DNA of 64,000 nucleotides from Treponemataceae bacterium. GTDB lineage: Bacteria > Spirochaetota > Spirochaetia > Treponematales > Rectinemataceae. The position numbers and the translations under genes were made by a program. Shown in pieces: positions 8,547 to 16,265 of the stretch (positions within the stretch are counted from its first letter, which is position 1; each line of letters starts with the position of its first letter). The stretch is from contig CAXXVZ010000005.1 in the NCBI GenBank assembly GCA_963678065.2, forward strand, positions 576,001-640,000. The letters are read 5' to 3'. The notes under the pieces are model-generated. The model was not told the origin of the DNA. It made no database searches and saw only the letters and a list, made by a program, of their open reading frames with translations.

Positions 8547-8575
8547 TTGGAATTTTTCAAATTATTGTGTATCAT
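8547..8575 (+). promoter_or_regulatory. sigma70-like promoter of the Lrp gene (TTGGAA-17-TATCAT), -10 box 6 nt from ATG (probably leaderless)
   Basis: Hexamers at 8547-8552 and 8570-8575; no SD before ATG 8582. Confidence 0.55.
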
Positions 8576-8581
8576 ATTCGT

Positions 8582-9070
8582 ATGATAGACAAGATAGATC
8601 GCGATCTCCTCACGCTTCTTCAAAAGGATGCCCGGCTGTCCAATGCCGATTTGGCCGAGGCTGTCGGCCTGAATGCATCATCTGTCTTCGAGCGGGTCAA
8701 GAAGCTCGAACGAAAGGGAATCATAACAGGCTATGTCGCCAAGGTGGATGCCAAGAAACTCGGCAAACCGCTTCTCGCATTCATGCGATTGACCTTAGGA
8801 GCGTCACAGCCGGAAGGGTTCAAAGCCACCATGGATAAAATTGCCGCTCTCTGCTCCGCCGAACCGGACATTCTCGAATGTCACGATGTCGCGGGCGAAG
8901 ACTGCCTCATTCTGAAACTCCACGCCGCCGGGCCTGGCGAGCTGCAGAATCTCCACGCTGCGATACGCGACTGTACCCAGAGCGCAAGGACCGTCACGAG
9001 CATCGTTCTTTCGACATTCAAAGAATCCTCTGCGGTGGAACCCGCTGCGGAGACCAAGGCCGAAGATTGA
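8582..9070 (+). CDS. Lrp/AsnC family transcriptional regulator
   Basis: IDKIDRDLLTLLQKDARLSNADLAEAVGL..ERVKKLE HTH; ECHDVAGED effector domain. Confidence 0.93.
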   Translation: MIDKIDRDLLTLLQKDARLSNADLAEAVGLNASSVFERVKKLERKGIITGYVAKVDAKKLGKPLLAFMRLTLGASQPEGFKATMDKIAALCSAEPDILECHDVAGEDCLILKLHAAGPGELQNLHAAIRDCTQSARTVTSIVLSTFKESSAVEPAAETKAED

Positions 9071-9088
9071 TTCGGCGAAGGAGGAAAT

Positions 9089-9370
9089 ATGAGCTCCGAC
9101 ACGATGAGCATCAGTTTAGGCGAACTCGCCCACGATAGCGCCCACTCTGACCGCAGTTTACGGCTGACCATGGTCCACGGGGAGGTCCTGCGGGTTCCGA
9201 AATCGGCGCGGAAGCTCCGGGTACTCTCAGGGCAGGCCTGGGTTTCCTTCGAGGGAAAGGACATTATCCTGGACCGCGGCGAAAGCCTCATGCTGCCTCG
9301 TAGCGCCCGCCACGAGGCGATCGTTTCCGTCACGGAACATGCAGACGCGCTTTTTTTCGAGCTCGAGTGA
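9089..9370 (+). CDS. Small cupin-like protein, DUF2917-like
   Basis: LRVLSGQAWVSFEGKDIILDRGESL resembles the DUF2917 pattern; strong SD AGGAGG. Confidence 0.7.
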   Translation: MSSDTMSISLGELAHDSAHSDRSLRLTMVHGEVLRVPKSARKLRVLSGQAWVSFEGKDIILDRGESLMLPRSARHEAIVSVTEHADALFFELE

Positions 9371-9468
9371 GATGATGCTGTATCCGGATGCGCGCCGTGC
9401 ATCGCGCGTGAGTCCCATACCTCCACGCCATCAAATATATTTCTATATGTAGTAACATCATATAGTAC

Positions 9469-9497
9469 TTGACGGCTTTTCCGTAGGGCGATAGTAT
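9469..9497 (+). promoter_or_regulatory. sigma70 promoter TTGACG-17-TAGTAT upstream of the riboswitch
   Basis: TTGACG 9469-9474, TAGTAT 9492-9497, AT-rich upstream element. Confidence 0.75.
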
Positions 9498-9510
9498 CCT
9501 CACCCATACC

Positions 9511-9691
9511 TCGAGAGGGCGCCTAGGGTTCCTCCCGCGGTCGCGATTCCCTGCGCGCAGGCACCGTGCGCAGGCGGAAGGCGATCGGCGGGGCACGGTC
9601 CAAGCGGCGTCGGCACCGGCCGCGATCAGGGCATGAGCCCCGACAGCCGGTGAAACACCCCCGGGACAAAAGCCAGGGGAAGGAGTCTCGA
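9511..9691 (+). ncRNA. ykkC-yxkD family riboswitch aptamer, subtype-2-like (not guanidine-I; ppGpp/PRPP-type architecture)
   Basis: Conserved blocks CUAGGGUUCC (9523-9532), GGUCCAAGCG (9597-9606), ACAC..GGGACAAAAGCC (9655-9674); P1 GGCGCC/GGCGUC, P2 CACCGGC/GCCGGUG, P0 UCGAGA/UCUCGA. Confidence 0.85.
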
Positions 9692-9830
9692 TCACCGAGC
9701 CCTTTCCATGTCCGAAGCGGGTGTCCGCCGGTCCTTTTCCAGGATCGGTCTTCCAACTATTCGACACAGCCGACAGCGCGGGAACAGTCACCCGCCCGGG
9801 ACGAAAGGGCCGACGCAAGGGGAGAACGTG

Positions 9831-10874
9831 ATGAATATCATCGCGGCCCGCTCGCTCTCCAAGACCTTCCGCACCCGTACCAAGGCAGAGGGGCTCGCCG
9901 CCGGCGCGCGCGCCTTCTTCAGGCCCCAGTACCGCGACGTGGCGGCAGTCGACTCCATCGATCTCGAAGTCTCGCGCGGCGAGGTCGTCGCATTCCTCGG
10001 TCCGAACGGGGCCGGAAAGTCGACGACCATCAAGATGCTCACCGGCATCCTCACCCCGAGTTCCGGCCACGCGACTGTCCTCGGCCTCGATCCGTCGAGG
10101 GAGAGAACGAAACTCGCCTCGCGCATCGGGGCTGTCTTCGGCCAGCGCAGTCAGCTCTGGCTCCACCTGCCCCCCTCCGACTCCTTCAAGCTTCTCGGGG
10201 CGATCTACGAAATCGAGCCGGAGCTTCTCGCGCGGCGCCGCGCCGAACTCGAGGAGCGCTTCGACATACGGGAACTCATGGACGTACCGGTGCGCAAGCT
10301 CTCTCTCGGACAGCGCATCCGCTGCGAAATCGCGGCGAGCCTCCTGCACGCGCCGGAAGCCCTCTTTCTCGACGAGCCGACGATCGGCCTCGACGTGATC
10401 GCGAAGCGGGAAATCCGCGCCCTCCTCGAGGAGCTCAACAAACGCGACGGCGTCACCATCTTCCTCACGAGCCACGACATCGGCGACATCGAGAAAATCT
10501 GCAAGCGCGCCGTCATCATCCACCACGGGAAGATCGTCGTCGACGAGTCGATGAAGACGCTCAAGCACAGGGCCCTCGCGCGCAAGCTCATCGGCGTGAA
10601 GTACGCCTTCCCCGTCGACCTGGACCTGCCCGGGCTCGCGCCCGTGAAACGCACGGCCGACGCGGCGCGGTATGAAGTCGATACGCGCGTGCACAGGCTC
10701 GAGGATGTATTGCGGGCCCTCGTCGCGCGCGGCGAACTCGAGGACCTCACGGTCGAGGACGAGCCCCTCGAGAACGTGATCGCGGAAATCTACGCGTCGA
10801 AGAGCGCGGGGGAGGCCGGGGCGACGATCGTCGGAAGGGCGCGGGCCGAAGTGGCGGCGGGAGGCGGAACATGA
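9831..10874 (+). CDS. ABC-2 type transporter ATP-binding protein (NatA/COG4586-like)
   Basis: GPNGAGKST, VFGQRSQLW, LSLGQR, LFLDEPTIGLD, TSHD; SD AAGGGGAG before GTG 9828/ATG 9831. Confidence 0.92.
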   Translation: MNIIAARSLSKTFRTRTKAEGLAAGARAFFRPQYRDVAAVDSIDLEVSRGEVVAFLGPNGAGKSTTIKMLTGILTPSSGHATVLGLDPSRERTKLASRIGAVFGQRSQLWLHLPPSDSFKLLGAIYEIEPELLARRRAELEERFDIRELMDVPVRKLSLGQRIRCEIAASLLHAPEALFLDEPTIGLDVIAKREIRALLEELNKRDGVTIFLTSHDIGDIEKICKRAVIIHHGKIVVDESMKTLKHRALARKLIGVKYAFPVDLDLPGLAPVKRTADAARYEVDTRVHRLEDVLRALVARGELEDLTVEDEPLENVIAEIYASKSAGEAGATIVGRARAEVAAGGGT

Positions 10875-11743
10875 CAGTCACCAGAGCGAAGGTGCGCAAA
10901 TACTCCGCGGCGGCGCGGATAGCGCTCCGCAACCGCCTCGCGTACAGGGGAAATTTCGCGGGCGCGCTCGTCACATACGGGCTCTTCGTGTTCGTGTTCT
11001 CGCGCATCTGGGCCACGGTCTACGCCGACAAGGCCTCGATCGCCGGCTACACGAGGGCTATGTGCGTCTGGTACTTCGTGATCGCGGAGCTCGTCGCCTA
11101 CGGCTTCGGCCGCTTCTACTGGACGCTCGACCGCGAACTCAAGAACGGGCAGATCGCCTACCTCGTCGCGAGGCCCTACAGCTTCACCATCTTCCAGTAC
11201 TGCCAGGCCATGGGGCCGGCCGCGATCGAGTCGGCCATCCTCTTCGCGGAGGGCAGCCTCATCGCGCTCGCGGGGACGGGACTGCCTCCCCCACTGGCGG
11301 GCATGGGTGCGGGCGCCGCAAACCTGACAGCCGGCGCATGGTCGGCCGCGGCCAGAATCTGGCCTGAAATTCTCCGCGGCGTCTGCGTCATCGTCGCTCT
11401 CCTTCTTTCAGGGAGCATCTCCTTCCTCCTCCACCTCAGCATCGCCATGACGGCGTTCTGGTTCGAGGAGAACGCGGCCTTCTTCTGGATCTTCCAGAAA
11501 TTCACCCTGATTGCGGGCACTCTTCTGCCGATCGAATTCCTGCCCGCGCGGGCGAGGGATATTCTCAGATTCACGCCCTTCCCCTCGATGGCCTACACGC
11601 CGGCCCGCATCATGGCGGCCTTCGATCCGAAAGAGGCGGCGGCTCTCATCGGCAGGCAATTCCTCTGGGTCGCCCTGGCGGCGGCTCTCGCATCAGTGGT
11701 CTATTCGCGGGGCACGCGGCGCCTCGCCGTGAACGGAGGCTGA
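10871..11743 (+). CDS. ABC-2 family permease (DUF990/COG4587-like)
   Basis: LAYR, G.IAYLVARPYS, AFWFEE, C-terminal VNGG; ATGA overlap with the ATPase gene. Confidence 0.85.
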   Translation: MTVTRAKVRKYSAAARIALRNRLAYRGNFAGALVTYGLFVFVFSRIWATVYADKASIAGYTRAMCVWYFVIAELVAYGFGRFYWTLDRELKNGQIAYLVARPYSFTIFQYCQAMGPAAIESAILFAEGSLIALAGTGLPPPLAGMGAGAANLTAGAWSAAARIWPEILRGVCVIVALLLSGSISFLLHLSIAMTAFWFEENAAFFWIFQKFTLIAGTLLPIEFLPARARDILRFTPFPSMAYTPARIMAAFDPKEAAALIGRQFLWVALAAALASVVYSRGTRRLAVNGG

Positions 11744-11745
11744 AC

Positions 11746-12582
11746 ATGAAGACAGATACATCGCAAGGCTCAGGCCGACGGCGGCGAACCGCGACCCTCC
11801 GCGCATACGCTCGTTTCATGCGCGCGGCATTCGTCGCCAACATCCAGTCGGTGATCGAGTACCGCGCGAGCTTCCTCCTCCAGGTCTTCGGCATGATGCT
11901 GAACAATGGCGCCTTCGCCCTCTTCTGGGCCGTTCTCATCGGACGCACAGGCGGAGTCGGAGGATACGGTTTCTCCGACATCATGTTCGTCTGGGGACTC
12001 GTGTCGACATCCTTCGGCATCGCGCACGTCGTCTTCGGGAATGTACGCAGCATCGGGCGCATCGTCATGGAGGGCGAGCTCGACCTCTACCTCCTCCAGC
12101 CGAAGAACGTGATGCTCAACCTCCTCGCGTCGCGCACCGTCGTGTCGGCCTGGGGTGACCTCATCTACGGCTTCATCGTCCTCGCGTGCCTGCCCGGTTT
12201 CGGCCTGGAGAAGCTCGCCCTGTTCGCGGCCCTGTCCCTCTCGGGCGCGGTGATTCTCACGGCCGTTTTCGCGGCCGCCGAGTCGCTCACGTTTTTCATG
12301 GGCAATTCCAGCGCGATATCGCAGGCGGCGACCGAATTCATGCTGAGCTTCTCGCTCTATCCCGAGTCGATCCACGGCACGGCTACGCGCTGGCTCCTCT
12401 ACAGTCTCCTGCCCTCGGCCTTCGTCGCCTTCGTGCCGCTCAGGGTTTTCACGGGGCTCGACTGGCCGGCCCTGCCGCTTCTGTTCGCCATCGCGGCCCT
12501 CTACATGGCGGCCAGCTACGGCCTCTTCCGGCTCGGGCTGCGGCGCTACGAATCGGGAAACCAGATCGGAATGCGGGTCTGA
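11746..12582 (+). CDS. ABC-2 family permease (DUF990/COG3694-like)
   Basis: EYRASF, GELDLYLLQP, YPESI, GLRRYESGN. Confidence 0.87.
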   Translation: MKTDTSQGSGRRRRTATLRAYARFMRAAFVANIQSVIEYRASFLLQVFGMMLNNGAFALFWAVLIGRTGGVGGYGFSDIMFVWGLVSTSFGIAHVVFGNVRSIGRIVMEGELDLYLLQPKNVMLNLLASRTVVSAWGDLIYGFIVLACLPGFGLEKLALFAALSLSGAVILTAVFAAAESLTFFMGNSSAISQAATEFMLSFSLYPESIHGTATRWLLYSLLPSAFVAFVPLRVFTGLDWPALPLLFAIAALYMAASYGLFRLGLRRYESGNQIGMRV

Positions 12583-12634: not shown

Positions 12635-12664
12635 TTGACGTGGCAAAACGGGGGGGCGTATGAT
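12635..12664 (+). promoter_or_regulatory. sigma70-like promoter TTGACG-18-TATGAT for the OMP-GH9 genes
   Basis: Hexamers at 12635-12640 and 12659-12664. Confidence 0.55.
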
Positions 12665-13700: not shown

Positions 13701-16265
13701 ATGAGGCCGGCAATCCTCGCACTCGCGGCAGCGCTGACCTTGGCCGCCGGCGTCTCCGCCGCGCCCCGCGCGGGTTTTACACACTCCGGAGCCGAGATCC
13801 GCGATATCAGGGTTCTGGGCGACGAGTGGATCTGCGTGGTCCGGGACCCGACCGACGCCATCCTCGCCGAGAGGATTCGGCGTTACGGCCCTCTTCCGAA
13901 ATACCAGGACCCCGGGCACTGGAAACGGCTCCGCGAAATCGGAGTCCAGATCGACGCGATCAGCGCCGAGGCCTCCGCCGCGACTCTCTCCCGGGACTCG
14001 AACTCCGCGTCGTGGCTCGTGAACGGCCTTCCGGTCCGGGCAGTCTCCCTCTGGGCGCAGTCCGTCGGCGCCTTCCCCGACCCCGAATACTCCGATCGTT
14101 CGCTTGAAAGACCGCGGCTCGCGGAATATCTCTACCTGAGGCTCCCTTCCGGACTTCCGGGCCCGACGGGGCCGCGGAGTATTTCGCTCACGCTGACCGC
14201 CCCCGACAAGAGCCTGCACAGCTTCGGGCTGGGCGGAGAGGGCAGCCTGTGCTGGAGTCTCAAGGTCGACCAGGAGGGCTATCTGCCGAAAGGGCCGAAA
14301 ACCGCGTTTTTCGGAATGTGGCTCGGAAAGGCGGGAGCCATGCCCTCAGCACAGCTTGCAGGGCGCTGTTTCCACATCATTCCGGCCGCGACCTCAGCCG
14401 GCACGATGGACCCGAAGCCGGGATCTGCGCCGACGGCGGTCTTCACCGGCACGATCAGGCCCCGCTCGCGGGACGCGGCCACGACGCACAAAGGCGCCCC
14501 CATCTCCGGCGAAGAGCTCTGCGAGCTGGATTTTACCGCCCTCGAAACTCCCGGAACGTACAAGGTCTACATCCCGGGGATCGGAAGTTCCTTCCCCTTT
14601 TCCATCGGCGCGGATGTATTCGGAAACGCGTTCTTCGCGACGGCGCGCGCCCTCTACCATCAGCGCTGCGGCGTCGCCCTGACCCCGGAGTACACGGCCT
14701 GGACGCGCGCAGCCTGCCATACGCAGACCTTCGCCGCCGCCTATCCGCCCGACAACGGCGAAATATACAACAACGCCGCGGGAATCGAGGAGGGGAACAG
14801 AACCTACGGCTTCCGCCTCGCCGACGGAAAGCCCGTGGCCGTCGATGCCTTCACCGTCATCCGCTCCACCGCGACCGGGCGGCCCGTGCCGGGAGTATCG
14901 GGGGGGCATCACGACGCGGCGGACTATGACAGGAGAGCGAGGCATTTCGCCCTGACCTGGTACCTCTGCGGCATCCAGGAACTCTACCCGGAGCACTTCG
15001 CCGACGGCCAGCTGCGGATACCCGAATCAGGGAACGGGATACCTGACATCCTCGACGAGGCCGCGGTCGATGTCGATCTCTGGATGAAGGCCCGCGGGCC
15101 TTCCGGCGAGGTCCCCGGCTGGATCGAAGAGACGCGTCACCCGACGCGGACCGAAACCGCGGCCGAGGACAGCTCTCCGATGTATCTCTCCCTGCCGGAC
15201 CGGGCCTCATCCTTCGCCTTCGCGGCAGCAGCCGCCCTTCTCTCGCGCCGGATCGCGCCCTACGCCCCCGCGAAAGCCAAGTCCTACATCGAGGCGGCGG
15301 TGAAAGCCTACACGTGGGCGGCGGACCCGGAAAACAGAATCAAGGGGCTGTCATTCCGGATCAAGGACGAGGAGGGCCGCTCCGGACTCGCGGGCAAGCT
15401 CGTCCTGTACGACGAGGCGCCGGAGTTGTCGGCGCGGGGAAGGCTGGACAGCCTCCTCGCAGCCCTCCAGCTCGCCGCCGCGACCGGCGACCGGCGGTAT
15501 ATCGCGGATTTTCGCTCACCTGGAGGCGCCGCACGAAAATCAGGCATCGACGCGCTCCTCGCGGCCCTGCCGGACGCCATCCCGCCATTCGCCCTCGTGA
15601 CCCCGCTCTTCGGCGGGATTCTCGAGAAGGCCGAGCGGGACAAACTGGCCGCCGCGGTCCTGCGGGAGGCCGATCTCCTGCGCTCAGGCTCGGAGAGCCT
15701 TCCCTACCGGACCCTGTGGCGTCCTGCAGAGCACGGGTACTTCAGTTTCATGGCATGGGGGAGCGTGCACGGGGCCCTGCGGGCCGGGATGGAAATACTC
15801 GCGTTCAGACTGACGGGTTCGGATCTCTATCGGCAGGCCATGCTGCGCGGGGCGGACTGGGAGCTCGGGGCGAACGAACTGGGCTCATCCATGATAACCG
15901 GTCTCGGCACGGTCTTCCCCGTCGTCCTCCAGCACATCGAGAGCGACAGGGACGGAATACCGGAACCGGTGCCCGGCATCGCGCCCTTCGCCCTGACATA
16001 CGGAATCACGCAATCGGCCCGGAAATGGCAGTTCGGACCGCTCGCGCTGGCCGGGGAACCGGAAGATGTCTATCCGATAATGCGGAGGAAATTCATCCAT
16101 CCCTTCCTCGAACCCTCGCAGAACGAGTTCACCGTGATGGAGAGCGTCGCTCCCCAGGCAGCGCTTTTCGGCGCCCTGATCCCGGCGGGATGGACGCCGC
16201 CGCGCGGTCTCGAGACGAGAAGCCCCCGCCCCGCGGCGAGCCTCGTCAGCTACCCCCAGCCCTGA
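13701..16265 (+). CDS. Secreted glycoside hydrolase family 9 with Ig-like (CelD_N) domain and an uncharacterised N-terminal extension
   Basis: Signal peptide; VDQEGYLPKGPK, LDFTAL.TPGTY, LYHQRCG, GGHHDAADYD, IPESGNGIPDILDEA, LGAN..G.SMITGLG, NEFTV. Confidence 0.88.
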   Translation: MRPAILALAAALTLAAGVSAAPRAGFTHSGAEIRDIRVLGDEWICVVRDPTDAILAERIRRYGPLPKYQDPGHWKRLREIGVQIDAISAEASAATLSRDSNSASWLVNGLPVRAVSLWAQSVGAFPDPEYSDRSLERPRLAEYLYLRLPSGLPGPTGPRSISLTLTAPDKSLHSFGLGGEGSLCWSLKVDQEGYLPKGPKTAFFGMWLGKAGAMPSAQLAGRCFHIIPAATSAGTMDPKPGSAPTAVFTGTIRPRSRDAATTHKGAPISGEELCELDFTALETPGTYKVYIPGIGSSFPFSIGADVFGNAFFATARALYHQRCGVALTPEYTAWTRAACHTQTFAAAYPPDNGEIYNNAAGIEEGNRTYGFRLADGKPVAVDAFTVIRSTATGRPVPGVSGGHHDAADYDRRARHFALTWYLCGIQELYPEHFADGQLRIPESGNGIPDILDEAAVDVDLWMKARGPSGEVPGWIEETRHPTRTETAAEDSSPMYLSLPDRASSFAFAAAAALLSRRIAPYAPAKAKSYIEAAVKAYTWAADPENRIKGLSFRIKDEEGRSGLAGKLVLYDEAPELSARGRLDSLLAALQLAAATGDRRYIADFRSPGGAARKSGIDALLAALPDAIPPFALVTPLFGGILEKAERDKLAAAVLREADLLRSGSESLPYRTLWRPAEHGYFSFMAWGSVHGALRAGMEILAFRLTGSDLYRQAMLRGADWELGANELGSSMITGLGTVFPVVLQHIESDRDGIPEPVPGIAPFALTYGITQSARKWQFGPLALAGEPEDVYPIMRRKFIHPFLEPSQNEFTVMESVAPQAALFGALIPAGWTPPRGLETRSPRPAASLVSYPQP

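Follow-up and report, generated by a model that had tools for sequence, protein, structure and literature searches.

A ykkC-type leader ahead of an ABC-2 transporter operon

We examined a leader RNA in a 64,000-nucleotide (nt) stretch of the genome of a Treponemataceae bacterium (contig CAXXVZ010000005.1, positions 576,001 to 640,000; the whole stretch is called the window, and positions refer to it). The RNA has the fold of the ykkC riboswitches and precedes three genes on the same strand, which encode an ABC transporter ATPase and two ABC-2 permeases (Table 1). Comparison with known riboswitches makes it fairly probable that this RNA is an ON switch for the transporter that senses ppGpp and/or pppGpp (guanosine tetraphosphate and pentaphosphate, together (p)ppGpp), and folding predictions suggest that it probably switches by freeing the ribosome binding site.

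The promoter, the conserved blocks, the helices and a strand able to compete with P0 were all confirmed from the sequence at the places given in a preliminary description of this locus. Judged by the promoter, transcription would start at about 9503-9505; promoter-like sites numbered 3 in 4.7 kb, where shuffled sequence gave 0.6 on average. P0, P1, P2 and P3 were all present in an unconstrained fold of 9503-9845 (z -2.9). Two metatranscriptomes from a single study gave RNA contigs that matched the region without mismatches over 9462-9701 and 9646-9796; their cover is patchy (18/30 and 8/30 bins), they carry neither strand nor transcript ends, and so they bear on neither the start site nor termination. 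The first contig already starts before the promoter, so that transcripts may read through into the leader. Upstream on the same strand (8567-9370) lie genes for an Lrp/AsnC regulator and a small DUF2917/cupin protein. Directly before the -35 box, a conserved AT-rich stretch (9430-9468) recurs in several spirochaete leaders and may be an UP element or a regulator site.

Table 1 Features of the leader, its operon and the reduced relatives (window positions unless a locus is named).
Feature	Position	Strand	Remark
Sigma-70-like promoter TTGACG-17-TAGTAT	9469..9497	+	-35 = 9469-9474, -10 = 9492-9497
ykkC subtype-2 aptamer (P0, P1, P2, P3), natA/GAG-tail branch	9511..9691	+	
P0 helix	9511-9516/9686-9691	+	sequence
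A5 and G6 equivalents	9516..9517	+	invariant 28/28
P1a helix	9518-9523/9606-9611	+	sequence
ykkC conserved block CUAGGGUUCC	9523-9532	+	sequence
ykkC conserved block GGUCCAAGCG	9597-9606	+	sequence
G48 and C49 equivalents	9604..9605	+	invariant 28/28
P2 helix	9614-9620/9646-9652	+	sequence
ACAC	9655..9658	+	C9656 = C75 equivalent, C9658 = C77; invariant 28/28
P3, seven positions per strand, no bulged G96	9659..9679	+	register test
P3 loop AAAAG	9668-9672	+	sequence
P3-to-P0 linker AAGGAG	9680..9685	+	family-wide pocket variant
Anti-aptamer strand	9696..9707	+	pairs 9676-9690 (OFF) or 9803-9812 (ON); no U-tract behind
Alternative partner of anti-aptamer strand	9803..9812	+	immediately upstream of ribosome binding site
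Shine-Dalgarno-like GGGGAGA	9819..9825	+	sequence
ABC transporter ATPase ('natA' of riboswitch papers)	9831..10874	+	PF00005, ABC_tran
ABC-2 permease ABC2_membrane_6	10871..11743	+	PF06182
ABC-2 permease ABC2_membrane_6	11746..12582	+	PF06182
Reduced ykkC-like RNA	L004:2711-2803; L005:2743-2825; L015:2784-2876; L014:2114-2188; L133-L162; L167-L177		

Conservation of the leader RNA

In the covariance-model check proposed in the preliminary description, no Rfam family matched the window at gathering level, and RF00442 (Guanidine-I) matched 9512-9682 weakly but over its full length (20 bits, E 0.31, cut-off 63); the score is low because the long insertions in P1 and P2 (49 and 23 nt) are skipped. 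It is conservation, and not Rfam, that excludes chance. A pattern for the 3' signature occurred in 7/69 genomes of the family and 44/301 genomes of the order, where reversed-pattern controls gave 0 matches. By family, it was found in 31/42 genomes of f6 and 4/4 of f5 and in 0/93 of f3, and its spacing was 13 nt in all 44 matches, although the pattern permitted 11-15. We examined 36 distinct matches; a script found the 5' half in 29, and the 7 others were dropped. Each of the 29 full-length copies has TTGAC 37-47 nt upstream and is followed by the same ATPase gene, which comes next in 28 (one gene truncated) and stands behind a GNAT gene in the locus L101.

An alignment of 28 copies, made of 27 of these (two near-duplicates left out) and the locus L011, underlies the fractions that follow. 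The helices were paired in 91.9% of cells (P0 in 96%), and both sides had changed in 17/29 pairs, which bears out the covariation that the preliminary description had wanted examined in homologous leaders. The same value was reached by 0/500 shuffles, and slid controls were 31-43% paired; relatedness of the copies inflates the covariation counts, and the contrast with the controls is nevertheless large. The conserved blocks stand in the order of the ykkC superfamily, together with its P1, P2 and P3 helices. The RNA at 9511-9691 is a genuine conserved ykkC-fold RNA.

Outside the order, a relaxed pattern matched 1/201 genomes against 2 control matches, not above chance in the genomes searched, and a viral scan gave one match only, without a 5' half. 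A metagenome scan, run with a pattern one N longer that misses the window copy, yielded the single locus L101. There, a full-length aptamer with the GAG-ending linker described below (L101:1433-1538, 14-nt spacing) is followed by a terminator and, in turn, the genes for a GNAT and the ATPase, so that GNAT and transporter contexts are joined within one operon. A close ATPase orthologue in the genome G004 (L085, 70% identity) has no leader RNA and directly follows another open reading frame. Other leader hairpins with terminator-like ends, not ykkC-like, stand about 60-250 nt upstream of related ATPase genes in L002 and L009, and neither leader gave a meaningful Rfam match.

A (p)ppGpp-type pocket with an altered linker

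Pocket positions are numbered after the Thermoanaerobacter mathranii aptamer (sequence in Table S2 of PMC9881157). All eight residues A9516, G9517, G9604, C9605, A9655, C9656, A9657 and C9658 (A5, G6, G48, C49, A74, C75, A76 and C77) are invariant among the 28 copies. In ppGpp aptamers of solved structure, A5 and G6 touch the 5' phosphates (PMC6031431); C49 sets subtype 2 apart from guanidine-I (PMC6031431), and loss of these contact residues marks non-binders (PMC9881157). With C49 in every copy and P0 paired almost throughout, the assignment to subtype 2 made in the preliminary description stands. Its use of ACACC as a subtype marker does not, as ACACG replaces ACACC in 3/28 copies and the published marker is C49 (PMC6031431).

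The residue G96 distinguishes aptamers for phosphoribosyl pyrophosphate (PRPP) from those for ppGpp (PMC6031431), in which the guanine of the ligand takes its place on C75 (PMC6031431, PMC6003355). The 3' side of P3 is, as had been observed, one base short of the PRPP aptamer, with 13 nt to P0 where the T. mathranii sequence has 14. Drawn without a bulge, P3 is 87.2% paired with 5/7 pairs covarying; a register that pairs C77 with G9679 was rejected, being 68.5% paired. The position equivalent to G96 is A in 18 copies, C in 7, G in 2 and U in 1, and both G copies have it opposite a C. We therefore take the base that is absent relative to the PRPP aptamer to be the flipped-out G96, and so the C75 equivalent is free for a ligand, as in a (p)ppGpp-type pocket. 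This places the specificity nucleotide, which the preliminary description had been unable to do. The A at 9675, in 'GCC-A-GGGG', which it had pointed out, is a G-A mismatch private to the window genome (1/28 copies) and was rejected as specificity base; the change shared by the family lies in the linker.

The RNA thus has P0 with A5/G6, G48/C49, ACAC with a free C75 and no conserved bulged G96, all features of subtype 2a. It lacks one further feature, a G next to P3 and opposite C77 with a linker of 4-5 nt reading (A)NARG behind it, and is therefore filed as a variant of subtype 2a. Tested aptamers have a linker of 4-5 nt after P3 (PMC9881157), and their table sequences read as having the G that faces C77. 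Here, an A is opposite C77 in 26/28 copies and a GAG tail closes the linker in 28/28. C9658 may be either unpaired or paired with G9682 across a 2-nt bulge, and analogy with the reduced relatives described below favours the pairing. The altered linker is likely to tune the preference between ppGpp and pppGpp and not the nucleobase that is read.

In one full-length leader of the window's family (L088, genome G032) both docking blocks have drifted, and the ligand-contact bases and the tail are kept; its sequence could represent an intermediate towards the reduced form.

Predicted switching by ribosome access

In the mechanism that we propose, the guanine of (p)ppGpp would pair with C9656, vacant without G96, and the bound ligand would keep P0 closed. 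The strand 9696-9707 would then be barred from invading 9676-9690 and would take 9803-9812 as its partner. With no ligand bound, the invading hairpin would form, P0 and lower P3 would open, and the prediction is that the ribosome binding site becomes partly hidden. The same hairpin would serve as an intrinsic terminator in some homologues. The anti-P0 competitor anticipated in the preliminary description is present in the window, where it has no U-tract; no intrinsic terminator was found in the window leader.

Duplex energies for 9696-9707 are -15.4 kcal/mol with 9676-9690 and -16.3 with 9803-9812. The invading hairpin was favoured by 3.5-9.4 kcal/mol at transcript ends 9710-9790; at 9815 the advantage, 2.9 kcal/mol, lay with the P0 form. 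Predicted opening of the ribosome binding site was 0.43 in the OFF form versus 0.87-0.90 in the ON form at transcript ends 9833-9846. The folds of long transcripts are dominated by early coding sequence of the ATPase gene (9849-9860), which is complementary to the gene's own ribosome binding site.

We folded 27 of the 29 leaders, those with a start codon found. In 22 of them, the strand directly behind P0 pairs with linker and P0 over at least 8 nt, and 6 of the 27 carry a U-tract (terminators, ON by antitermination). Among the 21 without a U-tract, predicted opening of the ribosome binding site on blocking of the aptamer rose by at least 0.1 in 10, fell in 2 and was unchanged in 9; L103 and L091 are predicted to fold as a clear cascade, the strand, once freed, taking up the anti-Shine-Dalgarno sequence. 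The window's spacer, at 138 nt, is the longest of the 27. Most homologues, lacking a terminator, thus likely act on ribosome access. These predictions support the ON direction well for the family and modestly for the window copy, whose own expression platform appears weak.

The transporter and its surroundings

Close orthologues of the ATPase occur in relatives, with 73% identity in a named Spirochaetes genome. Named close homologues belong to Spirochaetes or Spirochaetales, and all named permease homologues with a taxon are from Spirochaetes except one 'bacterium', in agreement with the spirochaete host that had been suspected. The ATPase homologues include relatives of the published hosts of natA riboswitches. 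Among the gene contexts of subtype 2a (branched-chain amino acid, glutamate synthase or natA ABC operons), the ATPase with two PF06182 permeases falls in the last, as proposed at the outset, although the label 'natA' is loose for this ATPase. PF06182 is presumably the former DUF990, and NCBIfam gave no model over its cut-off among the best 25 matches listed. In published lists, natA and two uncharacterised ABC genes follow 12/105 subtype 2a RNAs (PMC6003355). With one ATPase and two permeases, the transporter resembles the ethyl viologen exporters of TCDB 3.A.1.141 (EVE/DUF990; PMC5417439), a likeness of architecture.

Behind the operon stands another promoter-like site (12635-12664), and further downstream is a gene for a glycoside hydrolase of family 9 with a CelD_N domain (13701-16265). 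The genome encodes four proteins with a RelA_SpoT domain, one in an 825-amino-acid frame; two of their genes are no more than about 4 kb apart (G000:C3:1526002-1530486).

Relation to published ykkC RNAs

The closest described counterparts are the natA aptamers C101 (Clostridiales bacterium oral taxon 876 F0540) and C94 (Clostridium sp. BL8), which precede the same type of operon. They have in common with the window RNA a GAGA/UCUC P0, an unbulged P3, the GAG tail, all contact bases, 13 nt from the loop G to P0 and a competing strand that overlaps P0. They differ in having a G facing C77 followed by ACGAG, where the window type has A followed by (A/C)GGAG; these two binders likewise break NARG, yet retain the G. 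The window RNA further has a long P1 (94 nt versus 43) and a spirochaete host, and most copies of its type lack a terminator. C101 (dissociation constant 119 nM) and C94 prefer pppGpp, and C99 and C100 bind both ligands (PMC9881157); C101 antiterminates with ppGpp by stabilisation of the terminal helix (PMC10687018).

One published sequence is of the window's type. C102, an environmental entry among the 105 members of the ppGpp list in PMC9881157 (Table S1), has the same 5' block, the same type of P3 and linker and the same P0 ends, and is listed without gene or taxon; here, the type is tied to a spirochaete order and to the operon. The earlier proposal of a new phylum thus holds as a taxon assignment, not as a first sighting of the sequence type in subtype 2a. 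In the supplement of PMC9881157, as far as accessible, none of the names Spirochaet, Treponema, Sphaerochaeta and Leptospira appears, and the literature searched contained no report of a spirochaete ppGpp riboswitch.

The subtype 2b PRPP riboswitch of T. mathranii shares P0, A5/G6, G48/C49, ACAC and the GGG-ACAAAAG-CC loop with the window RNA, and is set apart by a bulged G96 paired with C75, 14 nt to P0 in place of 13, and purine genes downstream (PMC6031431). Guanidine-I (RF00442) shares the overall fold and the docking blocks, and differs by A49 and the lack of P0. The window RNA has neither the conserved bulged G96 and purine genes of subtype 2b nor the gathering score, A49 and missing P0 of Guanidine-I. 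Its gene context is also not that of subtypes 2c (NUDIX/HAD genes) and 2d (EamA/TauE genes; contexts from PMC7266159).

A reduced relative in Clostridia

In L004 and L005, the same ATPase gene is preceded by an RNA of about 80 nt. This RNA keeps P0, A5/G6, P1a, GAGC, P2 and ACAC, has a short P3 and retains the GAG tail, and both docking blocks (GGGUUCC and AAAAG; P1/P3) are gone from it. Its hosts are Clostridia and one Bacilli genome, and a terminator always follows. A pattern for it matched 30/81 relatives of the L004 genome, with 1 control match. The 26 loci divide into 16 before the ATPase gene, 4 before GNAT genes, 1 before a methylthioadenosine/S-adenosylhomocysteine (MTA/SAH) nucleosidase gene, 3 with no assigned gene and 2 that look like chance. 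Twenty-one aligned copies were paired in 96% of cells with an invariant C77-G, and pair-type measures did not exceed shuffles.

A model of the reduced RNA found 9/121 genomes of the class. It matched six full-length GAG-tail aptamers (E 8e-5 to 0.014, as rough E-values) and gave no match to the window copy or to Paenibacillus aptamers. In an ATPase tree (quick, 64 rows, from an unfinished careful search), the spirochaete genes formed one branch (Shimodaira-Hasegawa-like approximate likelihood ratio test, SH-aLRT, 99), nested in a 41-row branch (99) that holds all genes with full or reduced GAG-tail leaders; Paenibacillus genes with canonical leaders stood separately. Rfam gave nothing relevant for 12 reduced-RNA loci at E up to 1. 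The GGAM motifs (PMC7736828) were rejected as the identity of this RNA, as lineages and genes mismatch. We met no description of it in the literature covered, which took in neither most subscription papers nor the motif collections that lie outside Rfam.

Which ligand, and does the window copy switch?

Several points weigh against a (p)ppGpp-sensing ON switch. The papers covered report no test of an RNA of this exact type, C102 occurring once with neither primer nor binding entry (PMC9881157). The G that faces C77 in tested aptamers is replaced by A in nearly all copies, the linker is off the (A)NARG consensus, and aptamers with 3-nt linkers bound poorly (PMC9881157). The published natA aptamer C105 bound neither ligand (PMC9881157), and the gene context of the branch (GNATs, MTA/SAH nucleosidase) differs from the amino-acid context typical of subtype 2a. 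In the platform, the competing hairpin has two bulges, and predicted opening is 0.40 versus 0.55 at transcript end 9851 and reversed at 9860. The GAG-tail branch might instead read another guanine-nucleotide signal or metabolite (pGpp, pppGpp only, guanosine or xanthosine monophosphate (GMP/XMP), or another nucleotide), with the rearranged linker remodelling the phosphate pocket or donating a G to C75; we consider this unlikely, though deserving of attention. A ykkC subclass that binds GMP/XMP reportedly exists. Beside the A opposite C77, the invariant tail and the distinct gene set, such a ligand would suit the reduced relatives, which pair C77 with G in 21/21 copies and so are left with a 3-nt linker, a length tied to poor binding; C101, the nearest tested RNA, was moreover pppGpp-specific by DRaCALA (PMC9881157). 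Yet no contact base of the ppGpp pocket is lost, there is no bulged G96, and C101 and C94 bind (p)ppGpp, C101 also regulating with ppGpp (PMC9881157, PMC10687018). We hence retain a (p)ppGpp switch as the probable function. As for its preference, published trends link a long P1 to binding of both ligands, absence of P1-ACA to ppGpp and the tail to pppGpp (PMC9881157), so that the trends point different ways here.

Two further alternatives are less probable. That the family works as a (p)ppGpp switch whose platform has decayed or been rewired in the window copy (constitutive, OFF-type or Rho-dependent) seems quite improbable to us. The private mismatch at 9675, the bulged hairpin with no U-tract and a 138-nt spacer, and an opening that varies with the chosen 3' end would fit decay, whereas the core bases are all intact, the alternative 9803-9812 duplex is retained, and between the stretch and a contig of another sample that covers it there are 29 differences, none of them in 9600-9700 among the matches listed. 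A PRPP (2b) or guanidine-I riboswitch we regard as very improbable indeed: Guanidine-I is the sole Rfam match and plain counting puts a G at position 96 in the window, but that G faces a C and the position is A, C or U in 26/28 copies, C49 and P0 rule out guanidine-I, and no purine or sugE-type genes lie downstream.

Discussion

The riboswitch class, its link to this operon and one sequence of the same type are already published; new here are the host assignment, the pocket variant, the predicted translational wiring and the reduced cousin. An alarmone riboswitch centred on Firmicutes would thereby be extended to a spirochaete order, and the orphan entry C102 gains a host and an operon. The family also offers natural variants at the P3-to-P0 linker, a pocket region suspected of deciding between ppGpp and pppGpp, and it unites terminator and ribosome-access platforms on one aptamer type.

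It is conceivable, if doubtful, that the GAG-tail branch is a separate riboswitch class with a ligand preference of its own (pppGpp-only, pGpp or another nucleotide), comprising full-length spirochaete and clostridial forms, the reduced form of about 80 nt, stripped of docking blocks regarded as central to the fold, and a shared regulon of exporter, GNAT acetyltransferase and MTA nucleosidase; the reduced form would then be the smallest natural aptamer of its kind. The reduced cousin in any case poses the question of whether a ykkC nucleotide pocket can function without the long-range P1/P3 dock. If it can, the RNA would provide a compact scaffold for a (p)ppGpp sensor, and if the ligand is a different one, a new signal would be named.

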